Below are positions 8,440-48,380 of a DNA stretch of 64,000 nt, in pieces (the first letter of the stretch is position 1; each line of letters opens with the position of its first letter). The DNA is taken from the IMG/VR virus record IMGVR_UViG_3300007986_000015; one strand, 5' to 3'. The position numbers and the translations under genes are program-made. The DNA comes from an uncultured virus (IMG/VR IMGVR_UViG_3300007986_000015) (lineage: Duplodnaviria; Heunggongvirae; Uroviricota; Caudoviricetes). Under the pieces are notes generated by a model that searched no databases, was not told the DNA's origin, and saw nothing but the letters and a program-made list of their open reading frames with translations.

Positions 8440-8567
8440 AAATAAAGTAGCGATAAACTGTAGATAAATAACAGTGTACATTCTAGCTCGACTATGGTAT
8501 ATTAGTACCATAATCAAATTAGAGAGAAGGTGATGCTTGGAAATAGTGATGTATTGATTTAATAAAC

Positions 8568-8935
8568 GGGGGTGTTTTGGTTTCGACGTTTGGAATCTAA
8601 CACAGACCGCATGCAGAGGAATGACAAGGTTGGCCTCTCTAAAAGCCTTTCATGAAGTAGCTGATAACGCACTTCCTCTCGCTGCTTAAACCCAGCGATA
8701 CGAAACTAGTGAAGATATTCTTTGGGAGTAACTAGGAGTAGGACACGCTACGCAAAGAGACCAGAGTTGGTAACTGCTCTTGATTAGTTGCAATAGGGAT
8801 ATAGCCTGCATTACGTTCCCTTGGAAAGTGGCTATTGCGGCTAGTTAACGGCCAAGTAATTGTTAACTAAGCATGTAGAAGTTTGTATTTAATTTACTTA
8901 CGGACGAGGAGTTCGACTCTCCTCCACCTCCACCA
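8568..8935 (+). ncRNA. ssrA: tmRNA, tag peptide (A)ADNALPLAA at 8660-8689
   Basis: 5' GGGGGTG..GGTTTCGAC, tag ending LAA-stop, 3' T-arm GTTCGACT and CACCTCCACCA with G3:U70-type pair. Confidence 0.95.
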
Positions 8936-17304: not shown

Positions 17305-18612
17305 ATGAGCATTCGAGCGTTACAGGATTACATTTTTTATTCACGCTATGCGCGTCATCTTCCAGAGAAGAAACGTCGTGAAACATTCCGCGAAACAGTG
17401 GATCGGGTTTTTGATATGCACCGTAGAAAATATGTAAATGAGCTTGCACAGTCGGAAGAACTTCGCGAGCTCATTTCTATTGCAGAACGGGCATTGGCTT
17501 CAAAGACAATCCTTGGTTCACAGCGAGCATTGCAATTTGGAGGAGAAGCTATCCTTAAGAAAAACGAACGAATCTATAATTGCTCATCTGGTCATGTTGA
17601 CCGCCCTCGGGCATTCCAAGAAGCCCTATACCTTTTGCTGTGTGGAGTTGGTGTAGGATTTTCGACGCAGTATTGTCATGTCAACAAGTTGCCAAAGGTT
17701 CAAAAACGAGTATATCGCGAAACCGTTGGTGCTAAAAAGTATGTCGTTGAAGATAGTGTCGAAGGTTGGGCCGATGCTGTTGGTGTTCTTATGTCTTCCT
17801 TCTTTGTTGAAGATCAGCCATTTCCAGAATACTTCGGTTGGCACATTGAATTTGATTTTTCCAAGATTCGTCCAAGAGGTTCTTTGATCAGTTGGGGTGG
17901 AATTGCACCTGGTCCTGAGGGCCTCGAGAGGGCGTTGGAGCGTATACAGGGGTTGATTAATAGGCGAATAGAATCAAGTGATTCTGGAACCGTCCAGTTA
18001 CCTCCAATTGACTGCTATGATATTCTGATGCACATCTCTGACTCGGTTCTGTCAGGTGGTATCCGTAGATCCGCTTGTATCAATTTGTTTTCGCCAGAAG
18101 ATACAGAAATGGCCATGGCAAAAACTGGAGATTGGTTCCTGACTAATCCCCAGCGTGCTCGAAGTAATAACAGCGCTCTTCTTATTCGAAATGATGTGGG
18201 TCGTCAGCAATTTGCAGATCTATTCAAACAGACCCGCGAATTCGGCGAGCCGGGGTTTGTATGGGCCGAGCATGAAAATGTAAGTGTAAACCCATGCGTG
18301 ACTGCTGATACATTGGTCAACGTAAAAGTGAATGGCGAAGAACGGCTTGTGCGAATGGACGTTTTGGTTAGTTTGTTTATATCGAAGAAGGTTACGCTAG
18401 AAGCATTAAGTATGAATATTGAGACTAACGTTCGTGAATGGAAAACGATTACTAATGCTGCGATGACTCGTGCTGACGCGGAAATAGTTAAAATTGAATT
18501 ATGCAATGGTCAGTTTCTTAAATGCACGCCCGATCATAAGATATGGACAACTAATAGAGGATATGTTGAAGCAAAAGATTTGACAGAAGACGATGATGTT
18601 GAAATTCTATGA
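17305..18612 (+). CDS. nrdJ: Class II (B12) ribonucleotide reductase, N-terminal part plus N-intein (18295-18609)
   Basis: IYNCS, GVGVGF, GGIRRSA, GEPG, NP|CVTADT; intein block B KCTPDH. Confidence 0.92.
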   Translation: MSIRALQDYIFYSRYARHLPEKKRRETFRETVDRVFDMHRRKYVNELAQSEELRELISIAERALASKTILGSQRALQFGGEAILKKNERIYNCSSGHVDRPRAFQEALYLLLCGVGVGFSTQYCHVNKLPKVQKRVYRETVGAKKYVVEDSVEGWADAVGVLMSSFFVEDQPFPEYFGWHIEFDFSKIRPRGSLISWGGIAPGPEGLERALERIQGLINRRIESSDSGTVQLPPIDCYDILMHISDSVLSGGIRRSACINLFSPEDTEMAMAKTGDWFLTNPQRARSNNSALLIRNDVGRQQFADLFKQTREFGEPGFVWAEHENVSVNPCVTADTLVNVKVNGEERLVRMDVLVSLFISKKVTLEALSMNIETNVREWKTITNAAMTRADAEIVKIELCNGQFLKCTPDHKIWTTNRGYVEAKDLTEDDDVEIL

Positions 18613-18627
18613 TTTATAAATAATAAC

Positions 18628-19392
18628 ATGGATTCACAAATGTTATTTTATAGATTATATGGAAAATATGATTCGTGCCATCCCTTTTGGTGTAATTTTA
18701 CTCAGAACGAGCGCCAAAACTTCAGATATGAAAGAATGCTTTCACCCACAGGTCAAGAATTGTATGATTTGCTAAATAAAAGATACCTAATAGACAAAGA
18801 AGGTCTAAAGGTCATTGCTAAGGAATTGAACACGTCATATATGTTAATGCGCCAAGTGATGAATCTATATCAAATTCCACTTCGCAAAGGACAGTCCGTT
18901 GTAACTGACGCTCTACGAAAAAGAAGATCTGATAAAGCAATTAGTGAATGGAAAACGCATAGTGGATGGTTTAATCCAGATATTAGACGTAAAATTAAAA
19001 AGTACAACGCCCGAGGTGTTCAGGGGTATTTTTATAATAGCACAACAAATAATGATGTTTGGTTAAGATCAACATACGAATTCATCTTTGCGAAGTGGCT
19101 CAACCGTACTAAACAAAATTGGAAAATTGAAGTTACGCATTACGTAATGCCAGATGGCCGAATCTATCGTCCGGATTTTTTTCTATATGACGATAACTGG
19201 AATTTGTTAAAAATTGTTGAGATTAAAGGATATTGGGATAATAACTCAGATAAAGCCATTATCCTCAGTGAAATTACTGATGTTGAAGTTTGCATTATTA
19301 AAGGAAAGTCAATTTGTAAATTTATTGAAGAAAGATCAACTTATGAAAAAGAATTACAGAAATGGAAAGAGGTAAGACGTGTCCAAAGTTAA
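18628..19392 (+). CDS. Free-standing endonuclease (PD-(D/E)xK type) between the nrdJ halves
   Basis: RSTYE, YRPDF, VEIKGYW; own TATAAATA. Confidence 0.8.
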   Translation: MDSQMLFYRLYGKYDSCHPFWCNFTQNERQNFRYERMLSPTGQELYDLLNKRYLIDKEGLKVIAKELNTSYMLMRQVMNLYQIPLRKGQSVVTDALRKRRSDKAISEWKTHSGWFNPDIRRKIKKYNARGVQGYFYNSTTNNDVWLRSTYEFIFAKWLNRTKQNWKIEVTHYVMPDGRIYRPDFFLYDDNWNLLKIVEIKGYWDNNSDKAIILSEITDVEVCIIKGKSICKFIEERSTYEKELQKWKEVRRVQS

Positions 19393-20773
19393 AAGACTCT
19401 CAATTGAACGCAATGAAGATGTATATGATATTACTGTAGAAAGTAATCATAACTTTTTTGCAAATGGAATGCTTGTACACAACTGCGTTGAAATCGGGAT
19501 GTGGCCCATTTGGTATAATGATGATGGATCTGAAGAATCAGGCTTTCAGTTTTGCAACCTTACAGAGATTAATGGGAAGAAGGCTTCTGATGAAGAAAAG
19601 TTTTATGATGCGTGCAAGGCCGCCGCAATTCTGGGTACACTTCAGGCAGGATATACAGACTTCCCATATCTTGGTGAAATAACAGAAAAGATCACCCGCC
19701 GCGAAGCTCTGCTTGGTGTTTCTATTACAGGTATGATGGATAATCCTGAAGTATTGTTTGATGAACGTATTCAGCGAAAAGGCGCGAGAGTCGTCAAGAA
19801 GTGGAATCGGATTACAGCAAATCTTATAGGCATCAATCCCGCCGCACGCTGCACATGCGTCAAACCGAGCGGAAGCGCAAGCTGCATATTGGGAACTGCT
19901 TCTGGAATTCATCCTCATCACGCCAAACGATATATGCGTAGAGTTCAAGCTAATAAACTAGAGTTTCCTGCACAACATTTCAAATCCGTAAATATTGATG
20001 CTGTTGAAGATAGTGTATGGAGCGCTAACGATACCGATGAAGTCATCACCTTCTTGTGCGAGGTGCCAGATGGCGCTAAGGTTAAGAATAAGATGTCTGC
20101 TATTGATTTGCTTGAGCATGTTAAACTGACTCAAATGAATTGGGTCGAAGAAGGCACAACAAAGGAATTATGCGTTAGAGACTTTGTACGGAATAACGTC
20201 TCTAACACTATCACACTTCAGGATAATGAATGGGATGCTGTCGAAAGCTACATTTATCGTAACCGTAAAAGCTTTGCTGGTATTTCCCTATTGTCGTTCG
20301 CAGGTGATAAGGACTACGACCAAGCGCCATTCTGTGCTGTATACTCACCTTTAGAACTAGTCAAAATGTATGGAGATGCTTCAATGTTTGCATCTGGAAT
20401 GATTGTTGATGGCCTAGCGGCTTTCAAGAATCTATATCGTGCGTGTGATACATTATTAGGTGTTGGCGAAAACACAGAATTTGAACCAATAGACGCTTAT
20501 GATTGTCCATCAAACGATTTTATACATTCCCGCACGGCAAAAATGGATTGGATCCGCCGGGGCCGGCAGTTTGCTGATCGCTATTTCAATGGCGATCTTC
20601 GTCAAATGACGTATTGCCTCAAGGATGTTTCTAACTGGAAACTATGGTGTGACCTATCACGCACATATAAAACTGTAGATTGGGTGAACCTCGTGGAAGA
20701 GAGCTTTTTAATAAAGGCAGATGAAATGGGCTCTCAGGCATGTGCAGGCGGCGTGTGCGATCTTAATATATAG
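19379..20773 (+). CDS. nrdJ: C-intein (19379-19483) plus C-terminal part of class II ribonucleotide reductase
   Basis: VYDITVESNHNFFANGMLVHN|CVEI, FCNLTEI, VKPSGS, C-terminal CAGGVC. Confidence 0.92.
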   Translation: MSKVKRLSIERNEDVYDITVESNHNFFANGMLVHNCVEIGMWPIWYNDDGSEESGFQFCNLTEINGKKASDEEKFYDACKAAAILGTLQAGYTDFPYLGEITEKITRREALLGVSITGMMDNPEVLFDERIQRKGARVVKKWNRITANLIGINPAARCTCVKPSGSASCILGTASGIHPHHAKRYMRRVQANKLEFPAQHFKSVNIDAVEDSVWSANDTDEVITFLCEVPDGAKVKNKMSAIDLLEHVKLTQMNWVEEGTTKELCVRDFVRNNVSNTITLQDNEWDAVESYIYRNRKSFAGISLLSFAGDKDYDQAPFCAVYSPLELVKMYGDASMFASGMIVDGLAAFKNLYRACDTLLGVGENTEFEPIDAYDCPSNDFIHSRTAKMDWIRRGRQFADRYFNGDLRQMTYCLKDVSNWKLWCDLSRTYKTVDWVNLVEESFLIKADEMGSQACAGGVCDLNI

Positions 20774-20854
20774 GCGCGCGCGCGGTACGGGAAACTATTT
20801 TTAGCCCTAAGTACCTGATAATGGCCAACTTAGCAAAAAAGTTACCGAAAACTG

Positions 20855-20980
20855 AAAATAATGGTGTACATGCCATGGCCATTGTGTTATACTAGATCTA
20901 GATGCTAAAGGGATAGCAACCTGAAAGCAGCGGTTATTGAAAAATAACGGTGTACAATCCACGGACATTGTGGTATAGTA
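20855..20980 (+). promoter_or_regulatory. Two tandem early-type promoters ahead of the tRNA leader
   Basis: AAAATAAYGGTGTACA followed by TGTTATACT / TGGTATAGT, same motif as about 13 other intergenic sites. Confidence 0.8.
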
Positions 20981-21050
20981 TTACCAGAGTTTGAAAATAA
21001 TTGAAAATAATTTGAGATTGAAGGCAGTAAGTTGTATAAATAAGAGTAGA

Positions 21051-21152
21051 ATGATAAAGAAGTTATATAGATTTAGTAATCCCCTGGCAGGGACATGTTC
21101 CACACAATGGAAACATAATGCCGAAATTACACCTGATGAGGGTGTCGGTTAA
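21051..21152 (+). CDS. Putative attenuator leader peptide, 33 aa, containing all 20 amino acids
   Basis: MIKKLYRFSNPLAGTCSTQWKHNAEITPDEGVG-stop; TATAAATA at 21035-21042. Confidence 0.75.
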   Translation: MIKKLYRFSNPLAGTCSTQWKHNAEITPDEGVG

Positions 21153-21190
21153 GACGCATACATAGCTCGTTTATGTTTGCCTCTTAGCTG
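21146..21190 (+). promoter_or_regulatory. Antiterminator helix containing the leader stop codon
   Basis: 21146-21164 pairs with 21172-21190 at 17 of 19 positions (2 G-U). Confidence 0.75.
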
Positions 21191-21210
21191 AAAAGCCAAG
21201 AGGCTTTTTT
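21179..21210 (+). terminator. Intrinsic terminator (attenuator) upstream of the tRNA array
   Basis: GCCTCTTAGC-TGAAAA-GCCAAGAGGC followed by T6. Confidence 0.88.
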
Positions 21211-21324
21211 GTTATCGATCATTGACAATTGAATATAGTTTTGAAAATTGGAAAAAATCCAAGGATAGAGAGCTGACACTCTACAACCTTGTTATCAAAA
21301 ATGCGAGTGTCCTTTTTTCAAGTT

Positions 21325-21400
21325 GCCCCCGAAACATTATATGGATGATGTTCCGGCTCTTAACCGGAAGAATTCGGATCGTTACCGAACGGGGGTACCA
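21325..21400 (+). tRNA. tRNA-Lys(CTT)
   Basis: Loop CT-CTT-AA; atypical T-loop ATCGTTA; CCA. Confidence 0.85.
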
Positions 21401-21410
21401 TTTTTACGTT

Positions 21411-21485
21411 AGGTTCATAGTGTAATGCGTAGCACGAGAGTCTCCAAAACTCATTGTCTCAGTTCGAATCTGGGTGGACCTGCCA
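21411..21485 (+). tRNA. tRNA-Trp(CCA)
   Basis: Loop CT-CCA-AA; CCA end. Confidence 0.9.
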
Positions 21486-21491
21486 ATTTAT

Positions 21492-21566
21492 CCGCGATTA
21501 GTATAAAAGTTATTACTCCTGTCTGATACACAGGGAAAGGTGGTGCGTTACCACCATCGCGGACCA
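21492..21566 (+). tRNA. tRNA-Ile(GAT)
   Basis: Loop CT-GAT-AC; T-loop TGCGTTA. Confidence 0.85.
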
Positions 21567-21573
21567 TTTTAAT

Positions 21574-21651
21574 GCGAGGATAGGCAAATCGGTGAAGCCG
21601 GCTGGCTTATAACCAGTTGATATGGGGGTTCAAGGCCCTCTCCTCGTACCA
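21574..21651 (+). tRNA. tRNA-Ile(TAT)
   Basis: Loop CT-TAT-AA; CCA. Confidence 0.85.
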
Positions 21652-21801
21652 ATTGCATAGAAGTTGTTCAAAGTTCGCAAAGTATATTTCTCAGCTTAAA
21701 GCTGAATTTTGCTTATCAACATTATCATTTTCGAAATTTGTTGATATGGTTGTAGACCGTGATCAACAGCTAAAACATAGATCATTATATTTTCATTTTA
21801 A

Positions 21802-21876
21802 GGGCGATTAGTTCAAAGGCTAGAATCTCTGACCTGCACTCAGAGGATGCCGATTCGAGTTCGGCATCGTCCACCA
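21802..21876 (+). tRNA. tRNA-Ala(TGC)
   Basis: Loop CC-TGC-AC; G3:U70. Confidence 0.9.
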
Positions 21877-21888
21877 ACAATTTTTAAT

Positions 21889-21963
21889 GCCCCTGTCGTC
21901 TACTGGCTAGGATCTTTGGTTTTCACCCAAAGGGAGGCGGATCGAAACCGCTCAGGGGTACCA
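21889..21963 (+). tRNA. tRNA-Glu(TTC)
   Basis: Loop TT-TTC-AC; CCA. Confidence 0.88.
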
Positions 21964-21967
21964 ATTT

Positions 21968-22040
21968 GCAGAGTGGGGTGCTGGTTCCCCGCTGCGGCTC
22001 ATAACCCCAGTGACGTTGGTTCGATTCCAACCTCCGCTAC
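21968..22040 (+). tRNA. tRNA-Met(CAT), initiator-like, imperfect stems and no encoded CCA
   Basis: GGCTCATAACC anticodon arm, GTTGG-TTCGATT-CCAAC T-arm. Confidence 0.6.
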
Positions 22041-22095
22041 TTTCAGAGTCTAGTCAAGACTCGAACTTGTATAAATAAGAACATGGAGTAATTCT

Positions 22096-22764
22096 ATGTT
22101 CTATACGATATACAAGATAACGAATCGGATCAATGGCAAGTTCTATATTGGAAGCCATAAGACCATTGATCCGAATGACAATTATATGGGTTCAGGTAAG
22201 TATCTAAAACGAGCTCAAAAGAAGAATGGTATTGAAAACTTTACCAAAGAGATTTTGTTCGTTTACGACAACCCTGAAGACATGTATGCTAAAGAAGCTG
22301 AGATCGTTAATGAAGATTTCTTAACTGAAGAAAACACATATAACCTAAAGGTTGGTGGTTCTGGAGGTTGGGATTTAATCAATAAAAACAATCTCAATGG
22401 ATTTTCCAACGTTGAAGTTGCCCGTAAAGGCCGGATCGCTGCAGATGAAAAATTAAAGGCGAAGTATGGTCCTAATTGGCGAAGTATTCTCGCAATTCAA
22501 GGGGTTACGGGTTTGAAACTAAAAATTGAAGATGATCCAGATTTCTTAAAGCGTAAGAATACTCGAGCATTTCTTGGCAAAACTCATTCAGAAGATGCTA
22601 AGAAAAGAATCGGGTCGGCTAATAAAATTAGTCAATTGGGCAGTCGGAATTCCCAATTTGGGACCAAGTGGATTTACAACCCATATGAAAAGGTCTCAAA
22701 ACGAGTTCCAAAAGATATGCTGGTGCCTGAGGGCTGGCTTATCGGCCGTAAGATAAAGTTTTAA
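22096..22764 (+). CDS. GIY-YIG homing endonuclease (Seg-like) inside the tRNA array
   Basis: IYKITN..NGKFYIGSH, YMGSG, YNL; NUMOD3-like GKTHSEDAKKRI. Confidence 0.92.
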   Translation: MFYTIYKITNRINGKFYIGSHKTIDPNDNYMGSGKYLKRAQKKNGIENFTKEILFVYDNPEDMYAKEAEIVNEDFLTEENTYNLKVGGSGGWDLINKNNLNGFSNVEVARKGRIAADEKLKAKYGPNWRSILAIQGVTGLKLKIEDDPDFLKRKNTRAFLGKTHSEDAKKRIGSANKISQLGSRNSQFGTKWIYNPYEKVSKRVPKDMLVPEGWLIGRKIKF

Positions 22765-22773
22765 TACGGTATT

Positions 22774-22848
22774 GCTTCTTTGGTGAAACGGATATCACAT
22801 CAGGCTACGAACCTGACGTTGTAAGTTCGAGTTTTACAGGAGGCACCA
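22774..22848 (+). tRNA. tRNA-Arg(ACG)
   Basis: Loop CT-ACG-AA. Confidence 0.88.
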
Positions 22849-22855
22849 ATTTATC

Positions 22856-22933
22856 GTCCCCATAGTTTAAACGGTATAGAATACTGGACTCTCAATCCGG
22901 CGATTCGGGTTCGAAGCCCGATGGGGGCACCAA
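22856..22933 (+). tRNA. tRNA-Glu(CTC)
   Basis: Loop CT-CTC-AA. Confidence 0.88.
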
Positions 22934-22943
22934 TTTTTACAAT

Positions 22944-23018
22944 TTGGCCATAGCTTAACGGCAAAAGCACTGCACTGTGAATGCGGGGATACGGATTCGA
23001 TTTCCGTTGGTCAACCCA
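22944..23018 (+). tRNA. tRNA-His(GTG)
   Basis: Loop CT-GTG-AA, C discriminator. Confidence 0.85.
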
Positions 23019-23159
23019 ATATTGCCTGTTGATTCTGTTACGAGGGGTTTCAGAGTAGGGCAAGGACGTAGAGGTTTCTAAAGACTTCTCCTATCCGGAA
23101 ATTAAATGATCATCACAAATTTAGAATAGTGATGGTAAGGATCCTCTCTCATTTTTCGA

Positions 23160-23234
23160 GCGGCAGAGGTGTTAATAGATACACGAATGGCTTCCACCCA
23201 TTAGTTCTGAGAGCGTTACTCAGTTGCCGCACCA
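23160..23234 (+). tRNA. tRNA-Gly(TCC)
   Basis: Loop CT-TCC-AC; T-loop AGCGTTA. Confidence 0.8.
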
Positions 23235-23242
23235 ATTTACAA

Positions 23243-23316
23243 GCCCCATTGGTGTAATGGAAGCACACTACCCTGTCACGGTAGCAGAAGGAGATCGATA
23301 CTCCTATGGGGCGCCA
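23243..23316 (+). tRNA. tRNA-Asp(GTC)
   Basis: Loop CT-GTC-AC; GCCA end. Confidence 0.9.
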
Positions 23317-23324
23317 ATTTTAAT

Positions 23325-23410
23325 ACCTAGGTGAGCAGAATGGTATTGCAGCGGGCTGTTAACCCGTCGACGAAAGTCAACTGTAGGTTCGACTCCTACC
23401 CTAGGTGCCA
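23325..23410 (+). tRNA. tRNA-Asn(GTT) with long variable arm
   Basis: Loop CT-GTT-AA; extra GAC-GAAA-GTC hairpin. Confidence 0.85.
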
Positions 23411-23421
23411 ATTTATAAGAT

Positions 23422-23496
23422 GCCCTCTTATTTCAACGAATAGAATACTCGGCTACGAACCGAATGATGGGAGTTTGATTCTCTCAGAGGGCACCA
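23422..23496 (+). tRNA. tRNA-Arg(ACG), second copy
   Basis: Loop CT-ACG-AA; CCA. Confidence 0.8.
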
Positions 23497-23501
23497 ATTT
23501 A

Positions 23502-23600
23502 CAGGGATTGGAAGAGTCTGGTTATCTTCGTCCGGCTTGGAACCGGATAGGTATACTAAGCGTGTATGCCTCGTGGGTTCGAATCCCACATCCCTGACCA
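23502..23600 (+). tRNA. tRNA-Pro(TGG) with long variable arm
   Basis: Loop CT-TGG-AA; C1:G72; extra GGTATAC/GTATGCC hairpin. Confidence 0.85.
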
Positions 23601-23606
23601 ATGAAC

Positions 23607-23676
23607 GTTCGGAAATGCAGGTTCGAGTCCTGCTTACTCCACTGCGGGGTGGTCGTCTAACGGTAGGACACCGAAC
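23607..23676 (+). ncRNA. Circularly permuted tRNA-like RNA (Y RNA/YrlA-like topology)
   Basis: Order: GTTCGG, T-arm, closed acceptor stem, D-arm, CCGAAC. Confidence 0.7.
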
Positions 23677-23686
23677 AATTTTTTAT

Positions 23687-23777
23687 GGATGGATAAGCCA
23701 AGTCGGTCTACGGGCTGCTGTCTTGAAAACAGTTAGTGGTAAAACACGTGTGAGTTCGAGTCTCACTCCATCCGCCA
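23687..23777 (+). tRNA. tRNA-Ser(TGA)
   Basis: Loop CT-TGA-AA; variable arm; GCCA. Confidence 0.9.
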
Positions 23778-23785
23778 ATTTTAAT

Positions 23786-23850
23786 GCCCTGTTAGTTCAA
23801 AGGTCTAGAACCTCTGTTTTACACGCAGATTGTGGGGGTTTGAAAGTTCG
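23786..23850 (+). pseudogene. Truncated tRNA-Val(TAC), broken in the T-arm
   Basis: 5' acceptor strand, D-arm and TT-TAC-AC loop present; 3' end replaced by late promoter and HNH gene. Confidence 0.75.
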
Positions 23851-23869
23851 CAAATATATAAATAACCTT

Positions 23870-24550
23870 ATGAACTACAAATATATTTACGATTCACTAA
23901 TCAATACACGTCTTCAGCACCCGGCCATAGGCTATACCGAGCGGCATCACATATTACCCAAATCAATGGGTGGTGATTATTCTTTAACTAATATAGTAAT
24001 TTTAACAGGTCGTGAACATTGGATTGCTCATCTACTTTTATTTAGAATATATAAAAATAAACAGATGGCCCATGCTTGTCATATGATGGCAATGAGATGT
24101 GAAGAACGTGGTATTCCTCATATTCGCAATTCCCGCATGTATGAAGCGGTTCGAAAAATGTGCTTAGATACATGGCGCGCTAATGGTAAGAAGCGCGTTG
24201 GTAAATTTAATGGCTCGTTTGGAACAATGTGGATTTCTAATATCGAGCTTAAAGAGAATAGCCGAATTTCTAATGATACCATTATTCCGAAAGGGTGGGT
24301 GAAAGGCAGAAGCGCTTGGAATAAAAGGGGTTCTGGCCTTTGTAAAAACTGTGGTAAATCAATTAGCTTGGATCGTATGTCTTGTTCAGAGAATTGTCGA
24401 AGAGCAATTGTAAAAAACGCGCTTAAGGGCACACCAAAAACACTTGAGCATGTAAAAAATGTAAAAGAAGCATTGATTAAGAGATACGAAAATACACAAC
24501 ATCACACGAAAGGCCGCAAACGAGATGGTCTTCGTGGAAAATTTATGTAG
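23870..24550 (+). CDS. HNH homing endonuclease (Mob-like); true start 23870
   Basis: ERHHILPKSMGG....NIVILTGREHWIAHLLL; TATAAATA 5 nt before ATG. Confidence 0.9.
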   Translation: MNYKYIYDSLINTRLQHPAIGYTERHHILPKSMGGDYSLTNIVILTGREHWIAHLLLFRIYKNKQMAHACHMMAMRCEERGIPHIRNSRMYEAVRKMCLDTWRANGKKRVGKFNGSFGTMWISNIELKENSRISNDTIIPKGWVKGRSAWNKRGSGLCKNCGKSISLDRMSCSENCRRAIVKNALKGTPKTLEHVKNVKEALIKRYENTQHHTKGRKRDGLRGKFM

Positions 24551-24626
24551 GGACAGTCGCCTAATGGTTATGGCACCTCGTTTACACCGAGAAATAATTT
24601 CAGTTCGATTCTGAACTGTCCTACCA
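24550..24626 (+). tRNA. tRNA-Val(TAC)
   Basis: Loop TT-TAC-AC; ACCA. Confidence 0.85.
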
Positions 24627-24630
24627 TTTT

Positions 24631-24789
24631 GAAAGATTCACCAGTCTGTGGTCAGTTTCTAGTTTTGTCTGGCAAACGTCCTTAAATCGACTCTCGCCGC
24701 ACCGGATTAGCTATCCAATCGCAAGATACGTCAGCAGAGAAAGCTTAACATCCTAGGTAATTGTTGAGCGTTTATGGTGAACCTCTTTC
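24631..24789 (+). ncRNA. Unassigned structured RNA of about 160 nt
   Basis: Terminal helix GAAAG-A-TTCACCA / TGGTGAA-CCT-CTTTC, bounded by AT-rich spacers like the tRNAs. Confidence 0.5.
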
Positions 24790-24859
24790 AAAAACAAATA
24801 GCATGGCGTTAGCCCCTCGCGCGGTCGAAAACCCGTAATAAGGGCCCATATTTTTATTT

Positions 24860-24948
24860 GGGAGATGTACCGTTCATTGGTCTGTAAAACCAACGTCGAA
24901 AAACAGAACGGAAGTAGACAAGTGGTGCGTTACCACCATTTCCCACCA
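24860..24948 (+). tRNA. Atypical D-armless tRNA-Tyr(GTA)
   Basis: Acceptor GGGAGATG/CATTTCCC-ACCA, arm TTGGT-CTGTAAA-ACCAA, only about 9 nt where the D-arm should be. Confidence 0.65.
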
Positions 24949-24957
24949 ATTTAACAC

Positions 24958-25041
24958 GGCGGAGTTGAGCAGGTAGTGGGCTCAAGTGATTGTAAATCAC
25001 CCTCTTCGGACTTGTAAGTGCAATTCCTACCTTCGCCACCA
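24958..25041 (+). tRNA. tRNA-Tyr(GTA)
   Basis: Loop TT-GTA-AA; variable arm; ACCA. Confidence 0.78.
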
Positions 25042-25048
25042 ATTTCAT

Positions 25049-25124
25049 GGTACAGTAACTCAGTTGGTAGAGTAGCAGATTGAAACCCTGCCGGTCGTGG
25101 GATCATTCCCCACCTGTGCCACCA
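25049..25124 (+). tRNA. tRNA-Phe(GAA)
   Basis: Loop TT-GAA-AC. Confidence 0.82.
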
Positions 25125-25132
25125 ATTTTAAT

Positions 25133-25208
25133 ACTCTTATGGTGTAAGGGAATAGCACAAGAGCCTTCTAAGCTTTTAGTCTAGGTTCGAGTCCTAGTAG
25201 GAGTACCA
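25133..25208 (+). tRNA. tRNA-Arg(TCT)
   Basis: Loop CT-TCT-AA. Confidence 0.9.
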
Positions 25209-25215
25209 ATTTATT

Positions 25216-25291
25216 GCCGCTATAGCTCAAAGGCTTAGAGCCCTGGTTTTGTACTCCAGTGATCACAGTTCGAGTCTGTGTGGCGGCTCCA
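25216..25291 (+). tRNA. tRNA-Thr(TGT), variant loop
   Basis: Loop TT-TGT-AC; TCCA. Confidence 0.85.
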
Positions 25292-25298
25292 ATTTAAT

Positions 25299-25373
25299 TC
25301 GCGTGTAGTTCAGTGGTAGAGCGTTTGCCTGTTAAGCAAGTTGTCGCTGGTTCGAATCCAGCCTCGCGAGCCA
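25299..25373 (+). tRNA. tRNA-Asn(GTT)
   Basis: Canonical; loop CT-GTT-AA. Confidence 0.92.
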
Positions 25374-25379
25374 ATTTTT

Positions 25380-25470
25380 GGAAGTAAATCCCTGATGGTG
25401 ATGGGCGCTGTTTGCTAAACAGTTGGACCGTGTAAAAGCGGTTGGGGTTCGATACCTCTTACTTCCGCCA
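25380..25470 (+). tRNA. tRNA-Ser(GCT)
   Basis: Loop TT-GCT-AA; long variable arm. Confidence 0.88.
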
Positions 25471-25475
25471 TTCAT

Positions 25476-25550
25476 CCCTAGGTAGCTCAGAGGCAGAGCG
25501 TTCGGTTCATATCCGAAATGTCGAGATTTCGAAATTCTCCTTAGGGACCA
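25476..25550 (+). tRNA. tRNA with CAT anticodon (elongator Met or Ile2)
   Basis: Loop TT-CAT-AT. Confidence 0.82.
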
Positions 25551-25556
25551 TCTTAT

Positions 25557-25632
25557 TGGCCTGTAGCACAATTGGCGGTGCGGCTGACTCTGACTCAGCA
25601 GGTTAGTGGTTCAAATCCACTCAGGCCAACCA
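25557..25632 (+). tRNA. tRNA-Gln(CTG)
   Basis: Loop CT-CTG-AC. Confidence 0.9.
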
Positions 25633-25643
25633 TTTTTTTTAAT

Positions 25644-25719
25644 GCCGACATAGTTCAACTGATTAGAATTCATCCTTGGTACGGATGGGAACTGAGTTTA
25701 AGTCTCAGTGTCGGCTCCA
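25644..25719 (+). tRNA. tRNA-Thr(GGT)
   Basis: Loop TT-GGT-AC. Confidence 0.85.
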
Positions 25720-25728
25720 CTTTACAAT

Positions 25729-25804
25729 GCCTCTGAAACATTATATGGATGATGACCGGGCCTTTACCCCGGAGAATTCGGATCGTTACCGAACAGAGGT
25801 ACCA
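25729..25804 (+). tRNA. tRNA-Lys(TTT), variant loop
   Basis: Loop CC-TTT-AC; body nearly identical to tRNA-Lys(CTT) at 21325. Confidence 0.82.
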
Positions 25805-25813
25805 ATTTAAAAT

Positions 25814-25889
25814 GCATCGGTAGCTAAATTGGCTTAGCAACGCACTTTTAATGCGTGAGATCAGGGTTCGAGTCCCTGCCGGTGCACCA
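25814..25889 (+). tRNA. tRNA-Lys(TTT), canonical
   Basis: Loop CT-TTT-AA. Confidence 0.9.
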
Positions 25890-25894
25890 ATTTC

Positions 25895-25968
25895 GCCGAT
25901 ATAGTTCAAAGGAAGAATATCTGTTTCGTAATCAGATGATGTCAGTTCAAGTCTGTCTGTCGGCTCCA
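25895..25968 (+). tRNA. tRNA-Thr(CGT)
   Basis: Loop TT-CGT-AA. Confidence 0.82.
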
Positions 25969-25974
25969 GTTTAT

Positions 25975-26050
25975 GCGATAGTAATTCAACTGGGAGAATA
26001 CCACGTTGCCAACGTGGAGGTTGCGGGATCGTACCCCGCCTATCGCACCA
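25975..26050 (+). tRNA. tRNA-Gly(GCC)
   Basis: Loop TT-GCC-AA. Confidence 0.88.
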
Positions 26051-26101
26051 TCGATTAAAGTAAGAGAGATGAAGGTTCGAATCCTTTTAGTGTCAATTCA
26101 T

Positions 26102-26183
26102 GCGGATGTACGCAATCTGGCAAAGCGGCCAAGCTTAAACCTTGGTGATTTATTTGCGAGTTCGAGTCTCGCCATCCGCACCA
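26102..26183 (+). tRNA. tRNA-Leu(TAA)
   Basis: Loop CT-TAA-AC. Confidence 0.88.
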
Positions 26184-26306
26184 ATAATGGGCACTGACGA
26201 GTGTCAAGGCCAATGAGGAAAGCCTCTTGTCTAAGCAATATTCCCAGCGCATAAGTAGCAAGAATATAGATAATGCTCAAATCTCCAAAGGGCCGAAACC
26301 TTTTAT

Positions 26307-26390
26307 GTGGATATGATGAAATGGCAGACATGCAACGTCGAGAACGTTGTGCTGAAAGGCGTGGGAGTTCAAGTCTCCCTATCCACACCA
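26307..26390 (+). tRNA. tRNA-Leu(GAG)
   Basis: Loop TC-GAG-AA; variable arm. Confidence 0.85.
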
Positions 26391-26554
26391 TTTATGTTTA
26401 GTCATGGTATCACACTGTGAAATACGTTGAAGATAGATGATATCACATCTACGAGGATGGTTGATGCTAACAGAAGTAATTGCTTGATATAGCGATTGTG
26501 GAGCGAAGCAATAAATTCTCGCGTTGTAAAGTTCACTACTAAACACATTTTAAT

Positions 26555-26636
26555 ACCAGTGTACGCAATCTGGCAAAGCGGCCTGCCTTAGAAGCAGGTG
26601 ATATGTTTGTGGGTTCGATTCCCTCCACTGGTACCA
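26555..26636 (+). tRNA. tRNA-Leu(TAG)
   Basis: Loop CT-TAG-AA. Confidence 0.88.
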
Positions 26637-26642
26637 TTTTAT

Positions 26643-26716
26643 TGCTTCATAGTGTAATAGCAGCACAGGAGTCTTTGAAGCTCTTTGTCTGGGTGCGAAT
26701 CCCGGTGAAGCAACCA
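26643..26716 (+). tRNA. tRNA-Gln(TTG)
   Basis: Loop CT-TTG-AA. Confidence 0.82.
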
Positions 26717-26725
26717 TTTCAAAAT

Positions 26726-26807
26726 GCGGATGTACGCAATCTGGCAAAGCGGCCAAGCTCAAACCTTGGTGAATTATTTGTGAGTTCGATTCTCACCATC
26801 CGCACCA
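26726..26807 (+). tRNA. tRNA-Leu(CAA)
   Basis: Loop CT-CAA-AC; near duplicate of Leu(TAA). Confidence 0.88.
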
Positions 26808-27020
26808 ATTTACACATTCAATCGGTATACGCATAATAGGAGACGTCAAATTGGACGTATGAGTCTCCGATATATGTAATATGTGAAGAAGCAATTCCAA
26901 TAATGCGACTTAAAGGTTGACCTATTTAAAGTCCTAAGGTGAGAGCTTTCACCTTGGGCAGCAAAACTAATGGTGTACAATTACACCTAAATATGTTAAT
27001 ATAGATCAAAGTAGTTTAAT

Positions 27021-27096
27021 GGGTGTATGGCTGAATGCTAAAGGCGCACGGCTGCAAACCGTGATTGTGTGAGTTGGATTCTCACTGCATCCTCCA
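27021..27096 (+). tRNA. tRNA-Cys(GCA)
   Basis: Loop CT-GCA-AA; U discriminator; own early-type promoter at about 26965-27000. Confidence 0.88.
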
Positions 27097-27112
27097 AATT
27101 GAAAGTAATATT

Positions 27113-27724
27113 ATGAAAAGAGACGCACTAGTTTTAAACAAGGTTTTCATGCCTATACATGTTATCAATTGGAAGCGTACTATGTCGCTGCTGATGCAGG
27201 ACAAATGCCACGTAGTGGATCAAAACTATATTCAATATAACTTCAAAAGTTGGCTAGACGCTTCTCTTAAGATTGAGCAGAGCCCTACTCAGCACATCAT
27301 CCATACGGTTAATAATCGTATAGCTGTACCACAGGTTGTAATTCTAACCCAGTTCGATCGTCTTCCAAAGAACCAAGTAAAGTTTTCGCGTGAAAGCTTA
27401 TTTGTGCGCGATGGATATCGTTGTGGTTACTGCGGCCAAACATTCACCAAAAAGGAATTGACGGTTGATCACATCAATCCGAAATCATTCGGTGGACCAA
27501 AGTCATGGCAGAATACAATTTCTGCATGCAAGCCCTGCAATCATTTCAAGGCTGACCGTACACCTGAAGAAGCAGGAATGAGATTGTTGTTTGAACCTAA
27601 GAAGCCTTCGTGGTTTTTGCATATGAATCAAATGACTGCTCATATCGATATGAAGCCTCAGTGGAAACCCTTCTTGGATTCATTCCTTGTTAGGGAGAAG
27701 ACTAATGACGACGATGATGAATAA
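27113..27724 (+). CDS. HNH endonuclease (McrA-like); start 27113
   Basis: ALVLN, RDGYRCGYCG, LTVDHINP..GG...W.N...CKPCN..K. Confidence 0.9.
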   Translation: MKRDALVLNKVFMPIHVINWKRTMSLLMQDKCHVVDQNYIQYNFKSWLDASLKIEQSPTQHIIHTVNNRIAVPQVVILTQFDRLPKNQVKFSRESLFVRDGYRCGYCGQTFTKKELTVDHINPKSFGGPKSWQNTISACKPCNHFKADRTPEEAGMRLLFEPKKPSWFLHMNQMTAHIDMKPQWKPFLDSFLVREKTNDDDDE

Positions 27725-27732
27725 ATAGTCAT

Positions 27733-28062
27733 GTGATAACGACTATACAAGATAAATTGAAGGCCTCGGTAAGAGGTGGCGACTGGCGTAAGGTCAGGAA
27801 GAGTCACCTACTTACCGAGGCCTTTTGTCAATGTTGTGGTCGAATCAAACAATTAGAAGTTCATCATATCCAACCATGGGCAATGGTAACAGAACTTAGA
27901 TTCGATCCAGATAATCTTATCACTCTTTGCCGTGAATGCCATTTTCGTTTCGGCCATCATTCATATTGGCGAGATTGGAATCCACATATTCGCAAGAATT
28001 GTATTCAGTTTGGTCAAAGAGATATAGTGATACTTAAGCGTGGCTATCACGACAAGGTATAA
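27733..28062 (+). CDS. Small HNH endonuclease
   Basis: CQCCG, EVHHI.P, NLITLCRECH. Confidence 0.85.
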   Translation: MITTIQDKLKASVRGGDWRKVRKSHLLTEAFCQCCGRIKQLEVHHIQPWAMVTELRFDPDNLITLCRECHFRFGHHSYWRDWNPHIRKNCIQFGQRDIVILKRGYHDKV

Positions 28063-28070
28063 ATAACTAT

Positions 28071-28499
28071 ATGAATGAATGGATATATGATGGCAAAGAG
28101 TTTACTAGTGAGATGATTGGCGATGCTGTAGGGTTTGTATATTGCGTCACTAATCTTCAGAATAACAAAAAGTACATCGGACAAAAGCGGTTCTTTCGCA
28201 AAGTTTCGCGACCACCACTAAAAGGAAATAAGCGTAAACGCGTTTCATACCCAGAGTCCGATTGGAAAAAATACTGTGGATCAAGCGAAAATATTAAGCT
28301 GCTGCTTGAAGAGCATGGCCTTGATATCTTTCATCGAGAGATCCTTCATCTCTGCTACACTAAAGGCGAACTATCGTATCGCGAAAGCGAAGAGCAATTT
28401 ACGCGCGGCGTTTTGCTGAAGCAGGATGAATATTATAACGGCATAATTAACTGCAGAATTAACGCAACTCACGTTAAACATATGTCCATAGAAAAATAA
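28071..28499 (+). CDS. GIY-YIG endonuclease, T4 endonuclease II (DenA)-like
   Basis: GFVYCVTN...KKYIGQK, SDWKKYCGSS, YYNG.I. Confidence 0.8.
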   Translation: MNEWIYDGKEFTSEMIGDAVGFVYCVTNLQNNKKYIGQKRFFRKVSRPPLKGNKRKRVSYPESDWKKYCGSSENIKLLLEEHGLDIFHREILHLCYTKGELSYRESEEQFTRGVLLKQDEYYNGIINCRINATHVKHMSIEK

Positions 28500-29985: not shown

Positions 29986-30249
29986 ATGATATACCAATAT
30001 GTGTGTGAAAATTGCAATGAGGTGTTTTGCGTTGACTTATCAATAAGTGATCGTGAAGTACCCATTGGTGAAAAATGCCCGAAGTGTTCGACCAAAGGTA
30101 AGGTTAGACGCGATTATTCTGGCATTAGTTTTGTTTATGACACAGTGTCAGTGCATAAACGTGCTGAACGTAAAATGGGATCCCGATGGGGCGAGGTATT
30201 GAGAGGCATTCATAAGAGTGCTGGTAGCCATAGTAAAATGGAGATATAA
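29986..30249 (+). CDS. FmdB-family zinc-ribbon protein
   Basis: IYQYVCENC ... CPKC. Confidence 0.8.
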   Translation: MIYQYVCENCNEVFCVDLSISDREVPIGEKCPKCSTKGKVRRDYSGISFVYDTVSVHKRAERKMGSRWGEVLRGIHKSAGSHSKMEI

Positions 30250-30257
30250 ATACTAAC

Positions 30258-33200
30258 ATGGCTACTATAGATATAGGCAGAAATGCAACTCAAAGATTTA
30301 CGATCGATTTTAGTTTTCTACAACCGATATTCGATGCAGCGCAACAGGGCCTTCTAGACATTCTAGCAAATAATCCGGGCTGGGCCGGCACTGGTTCTGT
30401 GTGGATTGAATTCCTAACGTTGCAAAAGCTTGGCTTCATTTTAAGTGATATAAACAATCTTGGCAATAATACGGCGCATGATTCATTGGACGATTTTTTA
30501 GATGCCCTTGCCGCAACACCTGGAACTGGGTATAGTGTTAGCAGATCTGGAAATACTATCATTTTTGAAGCAGACGCCGGTGTTCCAATTGGACCAATGG
30601 AGCAATTGTCAGGAATGCAATACGGAGAGTATGTTGATTACTTACAATGCCTTTACTCATATTGGGATGGTTCTTCTGATGCATCAGAAGTTGTCCGCAT
30701 TCCTAACACGACAGTTAATAGCAATATTTCGTTAATCTCTGGCACGCTTGCTCTTAATCAAGAAATCAAAGATGCTATTCGCAATCTTATTGAATGGCCA
30801 ACTGATATCGCCGGGGTAGTAGCAAATCGCGATGCGTTTAATACCGATGTTTCAATACATAGAGAAGTAGAGGATCTTGGTGATGATGACCCCCGCCATT
30901 TAGCTTCAAATATAGAGCTAGTAATTCCAACTGATGATGATATTAGTTTTGATTACGCTTCGCCGTATTACGACCATTGGTGGCTTGATCCTCTTTATAA
31001 TACACAGAATATTGATTGGGCGAGTCTTGAAGCATTTTACACTACACTTGGTTTTAGTAATTTACAAGATGCGATCGATTCAATTTATTCTCACGTCACT
31101 CGTCAAACGGCAGCTCACACACTTGAGCAAGTGGCGTTCTCAGAAGCAGGGCTTTTAACGATCAATGCTATTTCTGGTTTTGCTGATGTTGACACGCTGT
31201 TATCTTCATTCATTCGCATGTACGATGGCATTCAGACGTATAAACCAGAATTTACAAAGCATAAAAACGCAATCGATTATTTTCATACAGCAGATACGAT
31301 TCAAGATAGCACTCTCGATTCAAATCCCGCAATTAGAGCATCATACAAGCTTGAGTTGGTTGAAAACGAATATACGGTATACACTAACGATCCTCTTGTT
31401 GTGACTATAACACAGGTTGTCGGTAATAAGCCTGATGCTAATCCTCTAAATGATGTGCCCGCGTCAATTGAATTTGATCTTAGCAATCTCGCAGCGATCA
31501 TGGACAATCCAGTGTTATTTGGTAATGTGACTCTCAGCGGGTTCAATATTTTGTCAACTACAGGTGTAGATTTAAGTGTACTGAATGACGTGCTTAACAC
31601 TTCATATGCTTCCATGGCTGCATTAGAATCAGCAGTAGCAGGCGTAACTATACCAAGCTTTAGTGTAACCCTCGCAGCAAACATTCTAACTGTTTCTAGG
31701 TTGCAGATCGACACCGTGCACAACGAATCGCTCACACAGGATTTTGATTTGTTAGCATACTGGATGTCTGAACCTTACGATGGAATAGAGTTTCCTCCAG
31801 CTACTGCACCGGCAGCGGGTGATATTTCTGATGGATCTTTGGCGCAATCATTACGCGCACTTTCGTGGATTGCTGTTCTAACCGAGGGTAGAATTCCCAC
31901 ACCGCCTTATGACATATCTAGAGACCTTTTAGCCAGTGCTGAAGAATCTCGCGTTACTACTGCAGCTTCAGTTAATAGCGCTCTAATAGCAGGCTTTGCA
32001 AATCTTGATGCCAAACTAGCGAGTTTCGTGCATAACCCTGCAGCTGACTTCATTAAAGGCACGCCTGCTACAACAACGCCTGCTCAACATCAGCCATGGA
32101 GACTTTACGAGTGGTATGGCAGAGCGTTAGGTACCAAATTAACAAAAATGTTAGTATTGAATGAACGTCTCTACGTATTGGCGGAATCACCTTCATATTG
32201 GTTTGCTGATTTCGTCGTTGACATTAAGGAAACACTTCCATCACCACCGTATACGTACCCAACCGAAGAGGATCCTCGAGCCGAAGCGTTGCCTGGAGAT
32301 ATTTGGGATACTGTTGATGAAGCGGTCGCTGTTGACCATGCTGACGCCACATATCGATATAGCATTCCAGATGAAAACACGGACCTTGCCACAACTGATC
32401 CGCGTACAACGCACACGTTAGGTGATTCTTATTTGAATCGAACTGTAACTCCAGTTATTGAACGCCGAATGCTTTCACCAAGTGTTCTTAATAGCAGCAA
32501 CGATCCAGTTGCTAATTATCGCATCACTGAATTTGAATCACACCAAGTTGCGTTACCATCACTTAATGCGGCCAACTCAACTCAATTTGAATCTAATTTC
32601 GTAAGTGCCAACGCTTCGTTAACGATGAATACGATTCCTCTTTATGATGATGTGTGGGGAATCGCAAAAGATTACGTTGATGGTGGATATTTTGATGTTA
32701 AAGTTACAGGTTTAGTATTCAGAACGACTGTGGATCCTACGGCCTTGTATCATCTTAACATGGCGTTAAATGATCTATTAGTAGTACCTCCTGGCGATTA
32801 TAGCACACCTGGATCATTTAGACGTTATATTATTTCGAAGATTCGCGCTGCAAATGAGCTCATTCCAAATTACACAATTACGATTAATGAAAACGGCTGG
32901 AATCATGATTACGAGAATGGCGATGTAGATCCATTAGTAACACGCGATCCAATGACATTTAGTATTGTTGCTAATGATCCAACAAATACTGAATTAATTT
33001 CAGTGGACGCTACGTATGATGTACGTCGTAAAATCGAAGTTGAAGGCGAGCAATCGTGGGAAGAGTACACAACAACGCCTCCAGTATACGAATCAGAACC
33101 AGGTGTTCTTATCGAAGAAGGTTCATCGATATTATGCGATTTTTCTGCACTTAATAATGTGTTCCTTGCAGCTCATCCAGTAGGTGAAGCTAATGCTTTT

Positions 33201-35753: not shown

Positions 35754-35770
35754 GCCGTATAAATACAGAT

Positions 35771-37435: not shown

Positions 37436-37545
37436 GCTGCATGTCAAGATTATTTTCAGTCTTAAAGGTCTCTTGTAGGCCAATTTACGCATTTTGGCTA
37501 AAATAATGGTGTACAAATGGGCCCAAACTGTGGTATAATGGTATC

Positions 37546-47551: not shown

Positions 47552-47584
47552 AGAGTTAAAGCTTCTAAAGTATAAATAGTCTGT

Positions 47585-48340: not shown

Positions 48341-48380
48341 TGAATTGTGGTATAATGGTTCTCTAATGAAAGGTAGTTTT

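Follow-up and report, generated by a model that had tools for sequence, protein, structure and literature searches.

Why phages carry large sets of transfer RNA (tRNA) genes, and how the expression of these sets is timed, are open questions. In the excerpts of PMC10264068 and PMC11555353 that deal with them, phage tRNAs are tied to escape from host tRNA-cutting nucleases. The stretch of DNA analyzed here (the window, 64,000 nucleotides (nt) of an uncultured virus) is the minus strand of positions 52770-116769 of an IMG/VR phage record of 141,905 bp, which carries direct terminal repeats. It differs from that genome record (G000) at 16 single positions, none of which is in 20780-21330. The window contains an array of 34 tRNA genes (21325-27096). 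The set covers all 20 amino acids, as a preliminary description made from the sequence had stated. Upstream of the array, behind tandem promoters, there are a 33-codon open reading frame (ORF), a long hairpin and a predicted intrinsic terminator. The question raised by this locus is whether transcription into the tRNA genes is decided in this leader and, if so, by what. All the features described below are on the plus strand of the window unless stated otherwise.

Our analysis suggests that the element is probably a conditional terminator, and ribosomes plausibly gate it. We give a probability of roughly 0.4 to the reading that a ribosome finishing the leader ORF gates the terminator, so that translational capacity feeds back on the transcription of the tRNA genes.

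The hairpin, the terminator and the stop codon

The predicted terminator is located at 21179-21210. It consists of a 10-pair GC-rich stem (GCCUCUUAGC/GCCAAGAGGC, 21179-21204) and the six U residues that follow it (21205-21210), and its end is 115 nt upstream of the first tRNA. The longer hairpin, which we call the antiterminator, extends over 21145-21191; in this structure, 21145-21165 is paired with 21171-21191 through 19 pairs at -19.8 kcal/mol. The pairs are arranged in blocks of 10, 3 and 6, with three G-U pairs among them, two single-base mismatches and the loop CUCGU. The preliminary description had given narrower bounds for this helix, which are corrected here, and had proposed that its 3' strand is also the 5' arm of the terminator. 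The folds bear this out. That is, nucleotides 21179-21191 are common to both stems, and the two structures are thus mutually exclusive. The energies obtained were from -19.8 to -20.6 kcal/mol for the antiterminator and from -12 to -15.6 kcal/mol for the terminator. A mini-hairpin of 7 bp (AAAAGCC/GGCUUUU, 21191-21208) was predicted only when the antiterminator was formed, and it occupies the U tract. Both structures, their energies and their mutual exclusion are direct results of the computation.

When the region 21035-21215 was folded, the minimum-energy structure held the 19-pair hairpin (z = -3.78), and 0 of 200 shuffled sequences were as stable. In the full leader RNA with its 5' end at 21048, the mean pair probability was 0.83 for the antiterminator and 0.088 for the terminator; with the 5' end at 20986, the values were 0.91 and 0.001. 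The antiterminator is complete once transcription reaches 21191.

Is it usual in this phage for a terminator to be hidden in such a manner? We searched the whole 142-kb genome for compact terminators, defined as hairpins of at most 35 nt with at least 7 pairs, a loop of 3-8 nt, an energy of -12.5 kcal/mol or lower and at least 5 T residues in the tail. Seven were found on the gene strand and two on the other strand. When they were refolded together with 40, 60 and 90 nt of upstream sequence, only the terminator at 21179-21210 lost its stem, keeping 0, 3 and 3 of its 10 pairs, respectively. Of the other eight, seven stayed fully intact and one lost 3 of 10 pairs, with the 40-nt extension only. 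When the 60 nt upstream of the terminator at 21179-21210 were dinucleotide-shuffled, its stem was disrupted in 12 of 2000 trials. We regard this predicted hiding of the terminator by its upstream sequence as the strongest result of the analysis. The terminator was missing from a simple terminator scan and was recovered by two further scans. A looser scan was uninformative, with 23 candidates on the gene strand versus 25 on the other strand.

The leader ORF is located at 21051-21152, between the tandem promoters and the first tRNA as previously described. It begins with ATG, comprises 33 sense codons, ends with TAA and translates to MIKKLYRFSNPLAGTCSTQWKHNAEITPDEGVG. As had also been stated, its stop codon lies within the 5' strand of the hairpin: the UAA (21150-21152) is 5 nt into the antiterminator. 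For ATG ORFs of 30 codons or more on the non-coding strand, the probability of a stop inside a given 21-nt window was about 0.06. The distance from the stop codon to the U tract is 58 nt, and this distance is of the same order in the trp leader. When 21135-21164 was masked as the footprint of a ribosome with the UAA in its A site, the minimum-energy fold became the terminator. Masking of ribosome positions further upstream gave the antiterminator together with the mini-hairpin in the U tract. Thus, the mask at the stop codon releases the terminator, as expected earlier, and the unmasked RNA favors the antiterminator.

A further hairpin at about 21120-21149, overlapping the start of the antiterminator, had been proposed as well. 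A stem of 5-6 bp is indeed present at 21129-21145, within the last codons of the ORF, and it is possibly a pause hairpin. It adjoins the antiterminator without competing with it.

What we infer is translation of the ORF, activity of the terminator, and an outcome decided by the coupling of ribosome and polymerase. The mechanism that we propose is as follows. The putative attenuator would sit in the leader, the 345 nt that separate the tandem promoters from the array. In naked RNA, the hairpin at 21145-21191 would form first and sequester the 5' arm of the terminator, with the mini-hairpin occupying the U tract, and the polymerase would continue into the 34 tRNA genes. When a ribosome moves close behind the RNA polymerase and arrives at the UAA, the 5' strand of the hairpin would be covered or unwound. 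The terminator would then form, and transcription would end about 115 nt before the first tRNA. Ribosomes that lag behind the polymerase on the leader would give more read-through. The net effect would be negative feedback from translational capacity to the supply of phage tRNAs.

Amino acid composition of the leader ORF

The leader ORF contains all 20 amino acids in its 33 codons. These include 28 distinct sense codons, among them AAG (twice), AAA, GAA, GAG, ATA, AGA and TTA. No amino acid occurs more than three times, and ten of them occur once. The simulation suggested in the preliminary description showed that such a composition is uncommon: the probability that 33 random codons include all 20 amino acids was 0.0009-0.0011, with the base composition taken from the genome, the local region or the ORF itself or with the codon usage. 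Among real proteins, one 33-residue window in 13,079 had all 20, and so did 28 of the 79,854 stop-free 33-codon windows in the six frames. The leader ORF is the sole case among the ORFs of 20-33 codons in the genome, of which there are 572 when the longest ATG form is counted and 931 when every ATG is counted. The all-20 composition is rare, but it was noticed post hoc and is without independent backing.

One explanation is that the 33-codon frame was designed as a test message that samples every amino acid. This is a narrower form of the ribosome-gated reading, in which the leader would be a universal sensor of decoding capacity. If any aminoacyl-tRNA became limiting, through starvation or a host anticodon nuclease, the ribosome would lag, the antiterminator would stay closed and the full tRNA set would be transcribed. 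Such a sensor would serve counter-defence alongside the transfer-messenger RNA (tmRNA) and the RtcB ligase of the phage. We consider a sensor of this designed kind quite improbable. Val is encoded once, at codon 32 (21144-21146), and Asp once, at codon 29. Judging from the usual size of a ribosome footprint, a ribosome at either codon would cover part of the 5' strand of the hairpin. Because a ribosome stalled at Val codon 32 would lie on the hairpin, the sensor would fall short of full universality; at such positions Val, and perhaps Asp, would go unsensed.

Furthermore, the leader codons are not enriched for matches to the phage tRNAs. Of the 33 codons, 15 have an exact match, 12 a wobble match and 6 neither, compared with fractions of 0.51, 0.33 and 0.16 in the genes. 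Repeated or clustered codons for one sensed amino acid are also absent from the ORF.

We searched for homologues of the peptide. When the 33-mer was compared by phmmer with 1.84 billion representative proteins, four weak multi-stretch matches to proteins of 122-965 amino acids were obtained, none of which is a homologue. A 53-residue form that begins at TTG had no match in a word-indexed library. Back-translated leader patterns matched three contigs that carry identical copies of the leader, and gave two chance matches inside a long coding region.

We also examined 16 tRNA arrays of cultured phages, namely those of CF1, BUCT695, JG004, CZ01, KaOmega, AM_K4 (two arrays), Milchi, f2b1, Kpn6N, T4, T5, KVP40, S-CRM01, Bxz1 and GAP32. 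In the 450 nt upstream of these arrays, all-20 ORFs of 20-70 codons were found on either strand in 0 of 16 cases, and the best forward ORF had P = 0.10. Among three large arrays of uncultured phages, one (G004) has no all-20 ORF and another, from a relative (G010), has one of 47 codons (L072 10657-10800, minus strand), located 102 nt before the first tRNA, which is a tRNA-Pro (P = 0.018). A sigma-70-type promoter and the motif TATAAATA, which is described in the next section, lie upstream of the latter ORF, and an 11-bp hairpin without a U-tract terminator spans its stop codon. A consensus promoter (TTGACA-N17-TATAAT) lies downstream of this ORF. By our own tally dozens of forward ORFs were scored, and the case in G010 is probably a matter of chance.

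The idea that the all-20 content was designed is not supported: there is no diverged homologue, the 16 cultured-phage arrays lack an all-20 leader ORF, and the codons match the phage tRNAs no better than those of ordinary genes. The composition fits the ribosome-gated reading, and that reading does not depend on it.

Promoters, relatives and rival readings

Two early-type promoters are arranged in tandem upstream of the leader. P1 (20865-20893) has the form TGTACA-N17-TATACT with TG, and its upstream box GAAAATAATGG begins at about 20850. P2 (20951-20979), the second copy of the same family, has the form TGTACA-N17-TATAGT with TG, and its transcript would start near 20986. The family is highly conserved and can be written approximately as AAAATAAnGGTGTACA-N13-TGTGGTATAAT or as GAAAATAAtGGTGTACA-N13-TGTGGTATAAT. 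A loose pattern for it matched the genome at 29 sites on the gene strand versus 5 on the other strand, and the tandem promoters of the preliminary description are real copies of this family. Copies are present at about 28 places, almost all of them on the gene strand, for example at 20824-20893, 60110-60178 and 37470-37538 of the window. A small palindromic or stem-loop box (ACTTAGCAAAAAAGT(G/A)C) precedes several copies, as seen in those copies without systematic scoring. At 20991-21011 the upstream box of the promoters occurs twice in tandem (TTGAAAATAAT TGAAAATAAT) with neither -35 nor -10 elements; these half boxes look like remnants of half promoters.

A third signal, TATAAATA, which the preliminary description had missed, is located at 21035-21042, 8 nt before the leader ATG. 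In the genome, this motif occurs 32 times on the gene strand versus once on the other strand. An ATG lies 5-9 nt downstream of 16 copies, and 14 of these ATGs open ORFs of at least 76 codons; the remaining two are a 2-codon frame and the leader ORF. At 10 sites the ATG is exactly 5 nt downstream, and in 9 of them it opens an ORF of 138-1831 codons without a Shine-Dalgarno sequence. The phage also encodes a homologue of gp55 (G000 119332-119661, 33% identity, E = 2e-11). By its strand bias, its set position before genes and the presence of a gp55-type sigma factor, TATAAATA qualifies as a T4-type late promoter. The leader ATG stands in the same context as the start codons of real phage genes, and the positions of the late motif and of the stop codon, like the rarity of the arrangement, come from the computation itself. 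By analogy with the spacing in T4-like phages, late mRNAs of the TATAAATA-N5-ATG type would start at the A of AUG, that is, they would be leaderless. With the T4 spacing between motif and start, a late transcript from 21035-21042 would start near 21048. On such a transcript the leader ORF would be almost leaderless, like many genes of this phage. Other examples of the motif are found at 30245-30260, 35758-35773, 28058-28073 and 18615-18630 of the window, and the TATAAATA-N5-ATG arrangement is also present in a relative (L044).

Neither the early-family promoter nor TATAAATA occurs between 21210 and 21325. Any transcript of the array that starts at P1, at P2 or at the late motif therefore has to cross the terminator.

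Several findings weigh against gating of this terminator by ribosomes. The Shine-Dalgarno sequence of the leader (AAGAG, 21042-21046) is weak, at -2.4 kcal/mol versus a median of -4.0, and 67% of the long ORFs have an equal or better one. A weak sigma-70-like candidate promoter (TTATCG-N16-TATAGT, with its -10 at 21235-21240) could supply the tRNAs independently. The classic anti-antiterminator (1:2) pairing is absent from the leader, and the ribosome-free ensemble favors the antiterminator. The sole 1:2 alternative joins 21049-21066 to 21162-21178 over a long range; it is A-U-rich and appeared for a single 5' end and a single transcript length. In addition, when the 3' end of the transcript is at 21204, the hairpin state and the terminator state are only about 2 kcal/mol apart, and the 5' end determines which of them is favored. 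With the 5' end at 21048 the terminator state had -43.7 and the hairpin state -41.6 kcal/mol; with the 5' end of the P2 transcript at 20986, the hairpin state had -47.8 and the terminator state -46.3. Kinetics rather than equilibrium would decide the outcome.

The comparison with relatives belongs to the same side. The only copies of the leader are 100% identical ones, found in three IMG/VR contigs; relatives in IMG/VR were sought through the ribonucleotide reductase, exonuclease and clamp-loader genes. In contigs of four DNA sequencing runs, of which two came from a single sample, the ORF and both helices are unchanged wherever they are covered; one run lacks a single base at 21004, upstream of the leader ATG. 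The evidence is thus a single sequence, which provides neither covariation nor a test of ORF conservation. A blastn search of 20780-21330 against 50,697 phage records gave no match, and the leader likewise matched nothing in the whole records of five relatives. Relatives of the next rank (58-77% identity) lack a tRNA array here and carry other genes after the reductase. In the closest relative with an array (G006), the array is cut at the contig start, and a search with its first bases in viral and metagenome contigs returned the same contig only. The comparative evidence on the leader is thus absent, not negative. Among the 16 cultured-phage arrays, a terminator-like hairpin was found in the approximately 750 nt upstream in 0 of 16 cases, and an upstream terminator is not a general design of phage tRNA arrays. 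In two uncultured phages, strong terminators do lie before tRNA genes, 16 nt upstream in G011 (L125, reverse strand) and 230 nt upstream in G004 (L073, about 2529-2553). In both phages an ORF of 23-25 codons ends about 25 nt before the terminator stem, and these terminators are not hidden by upstream sequence.

The folding results allow a second reading, in which the terminator is conditional, the ORF is incidental and the trigger is something other than translation. The trigger could be a protein of the phage or the host, a small RNA or a tRNA, cutting of the 19-pair hairpin by RNase III, or the 5' end of the transcript (early versus late promoter). The switch itself, which is the best-supported part, is shared by this reading; the shift of the balance at 21204 with the 5' end and the weak Shine-Dalgarno sequence also suit it, and the extra upstream boxes in the 5' untranslated region (20991-21011) could bind a regulator. 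However, at this stop codon a terminating ribosome would be in exactly the position to release the terminator arm, the leader ATG shares its late-promoter context with real genes, and no candidate factor was identified. Nor did the leader match any Rfam family, T-boxes included: at E <= 1, the region 20000-28000 gave only tRNA-related matches, and at the Rfam gathering score the window likewise gave no family in the leader. On the whole, we find a trigger of this kind unlikely.

The promoters bring in a third reading, namely a separate mini-unit that regulates nothing, composed of the late promoter, the terminator and, between them, a 33-residue ORFan or a small stable RNA. Small stable RNAs are encoded next to the tRNA cluster in T4 itself. 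Such a unit could be a cassette shuffled with PeSLs, the composite stem-loop/early-promoter motifs of T4-like phages, in a hyperplastic region of the T4-like type, and the tRNAs would be expressed through leaky read-through or from the weak promoter after 21210. The promoters recur as a family, several copies of which have a small stem-loop box in front, like the PeSLs in the parts of PMC4122927 that describe them, the half boxes at 20991-21011 resemble promoter remnants, and TATAAATA, ATG, ORF and terminator together make a compact unit. The possible promoter with its -10 TATAGT at 21235-21240 agrees with this as well. A plain gene terminator, however, needs no stronger competing hairpin, and 0 of the 8 other compact terminators has one. 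The peptide has no homologue among the 1.84 billion representative proteins, and 20 residue types within 33 positions are almost never seen in real proteins. We therefore consider the mini-unit rather unlikely.

Lastly, the whole arrangement could be a coincidence, in which a leaky terminator arising from the shuffling of promoters and stem-loops met an upstream sequence that folds by chance and a chance ORF, and nothing is sensed. The hypothesis was formed post hoc, and a very large scan will yield ORFs of the 1-in-1000 kind. The even strand counts of the loose terminator scan, the ORF of G010, which is close to chance expectation, and the lack of conservation evidence of any kind all agree with such an origin. 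Set against this is the meeting of roughly independent rare features in one leader: the switch (0.006), the stop position (0.06) and the all-20 content (0.001). To these are added an ATG 5-9 nt after TATAAATA, for which we estimate about 0.09 from base composition, and the fold of the leader with its z of -3.78. Coincidence alone thus appears to us improbable, and we continue to favor the terminator gated by ribosomes as the working reading.

Neighboring genes and comparison with known systems

Judged by its gene content, the phage is a distant T4-like myovirus. It has genes for a sliding clamp, a clamp loader, RegA, a split DNA polymerase, a glucosyltransferase, an RtcB ligase and many homing endonucleases. 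The clamp loader is about 50% identical to those of the nearest cultured phages, which are Pelagibacter phage HTVC008M, cyanomyoviruses and Methylophilales phages. The sequencing runs that contain the stretch are labeled as aquifer, cold-spring and hot-spring metagenomes.

The genes for translation and its rescue comprise 36 tRNAs, a tmRNA and RtcB, and this outlay by the phage counts in favor of the ribosome-gated reading. The tmRNA gene (8568-8935, Rfam RF00023, 100.5 bits) lies just 3' of a family promoter at 8475 and is absent from the ARAGORN calls; tmRNA genes are also present in two relatives found by their reductase (L034 and L035). The RtcB-type RNA ligase (41561-42811, phrog_1075, E = 1.5e-107) is of the enzyme kind that reseals cut tRNAs.

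Two other genes of the window are interrupted. The DNA polymerase gene is fragmented within 46061-51257 into pieces at 46061-47551, 48748-49287 and 50340-51257. Between these pieces lie a group I intron (48472-48678, 95.7 bits) and homing-endonuclease-like ORFs at 47585-48340 and 49280-50359. The ribonucleotide reductase gene (17305-20773) is split as well. An endonuclease-like ORF (18628-19392) separates its two halves, the second of which starts with a motif (…HNFFANGMLVHNC) resembling the C terminus of an intein.

Directly before the first tRNA, a weak stem of 7 bp with a large loop (21275-21318) is followed by CUUUUUUC. It is no better than shuffled sequences (z = -0.83), and its significance is doubtful. 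The first tRNA of the array, Lys-CTT, was called by ARAGORN without an Rfam call. It is one of two related tRNA-Lys-like sequences, at 21325-21400 and 25727-25804. The latter was missed by both ARAGORN and Rfam, yet it shares 81% identity with the tRNA-Lys(TTT) of G006. The two may be unusual or decaying tRNA genes. Overlong tRNA calls (Pro, 99 nt; Asn, 86 nt) are found within 23325-23410, 23502-23600 and 23594-23695, and the same stretch contains weak sub-threshold Rfam matches (YrlA-like and a tmRNA fragment).

Homing endonuclease genes interrupt the array at 22096-22764 and 23861-24550. In this respect the array is like those of T4, T5, KVP40, S-CRM01 and other phages, in which clustered tRNA genes have homing endonuclease genes among them; an excerpt of PMC2330249 names segB in the T4 tRNA cluster. 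In contrast to the 16 cultured arrays, those of the four named phages included, this phage has an upstream terminator together with an all-20 ORF.

The promoter region recalls the PeSLs. According to the parts of PMC4122927 that concern them, PeSLs include "degraded" copies. Like them, the promoter family is early-type, conserved, repeated and dispersed, and several of its copies have a stem-loop box upstream. PeSLs are duplicated or degraded where the genome is plastic, a pattern that suits P1, P2 and the half boxes. In the same parts of that paper, PeSLs are promoters and terminators that act as points of recombination, with no competing antiterminator or leader ORF, unlike the leader described here.

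The leader also resembles T-box riboswitches, in that a choice between terminator and antiterminator would report the status of tRNA. A T-box senses uncharged tRNA by direct binding and works without an ORF, whereas this leader has an ORF and gave no match to the T-box covariance model. Another parallel is the pyrBI attenuator of E. coli, where a close ribosome prevents the terminator hairpin. As in pyrBI, the distance between ribosome and polymerase on the leader ORF would decide, not one amino acid. The polarity is opposite, that is, a close ribosome on the phage leader would remove the antiterminator and favor termination.

In anatomy the leader is like the leader-peptide attenuators of enterobacterial amino-acid operons, which include trpL, hisL, leuL, thrL, pheL and the ilv leaders as well as the pheM leader of pheST. 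In both, a short ORF precedes an intrinsic terminator with a mutually exclusive antiterminator, and the position of the stop codon would let a terminating ribosome mask the 5' strand of the antiterminator, and a ribosome held upstream would give read-through. The preliminary description had invoked trp/his-type logic for this leader; the anatomy and the either/or folding are supported, and repeated codons and a convincing 1:2 pairing are absent. The phage leader has no run of a single codon, each amino acid occurring one to three times. Without a convincing 1:2 pairing, its ribosome-free default would be read-through rather than super-attenuation. Its Shine-Dalgarno sequence is weak, and the start may be almost leaderless after a T4-type late promoter. 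The controlled genes would be phage tRNA genes, not biosynthetic or synthetase genes, and no such control of tRNA genes was found in the literature searched. If the reading is true, the leader would be the first case on record in which decoding capacity feeds back on the transcription of tRNA genes. The element is compact, at about 200 nt, and is amenable to a cell-free coupled system that does not need culture of the phage. Compared with the known attenuators, it would extend attenuation by a leader peptide from one amino acid to translation as a whole.

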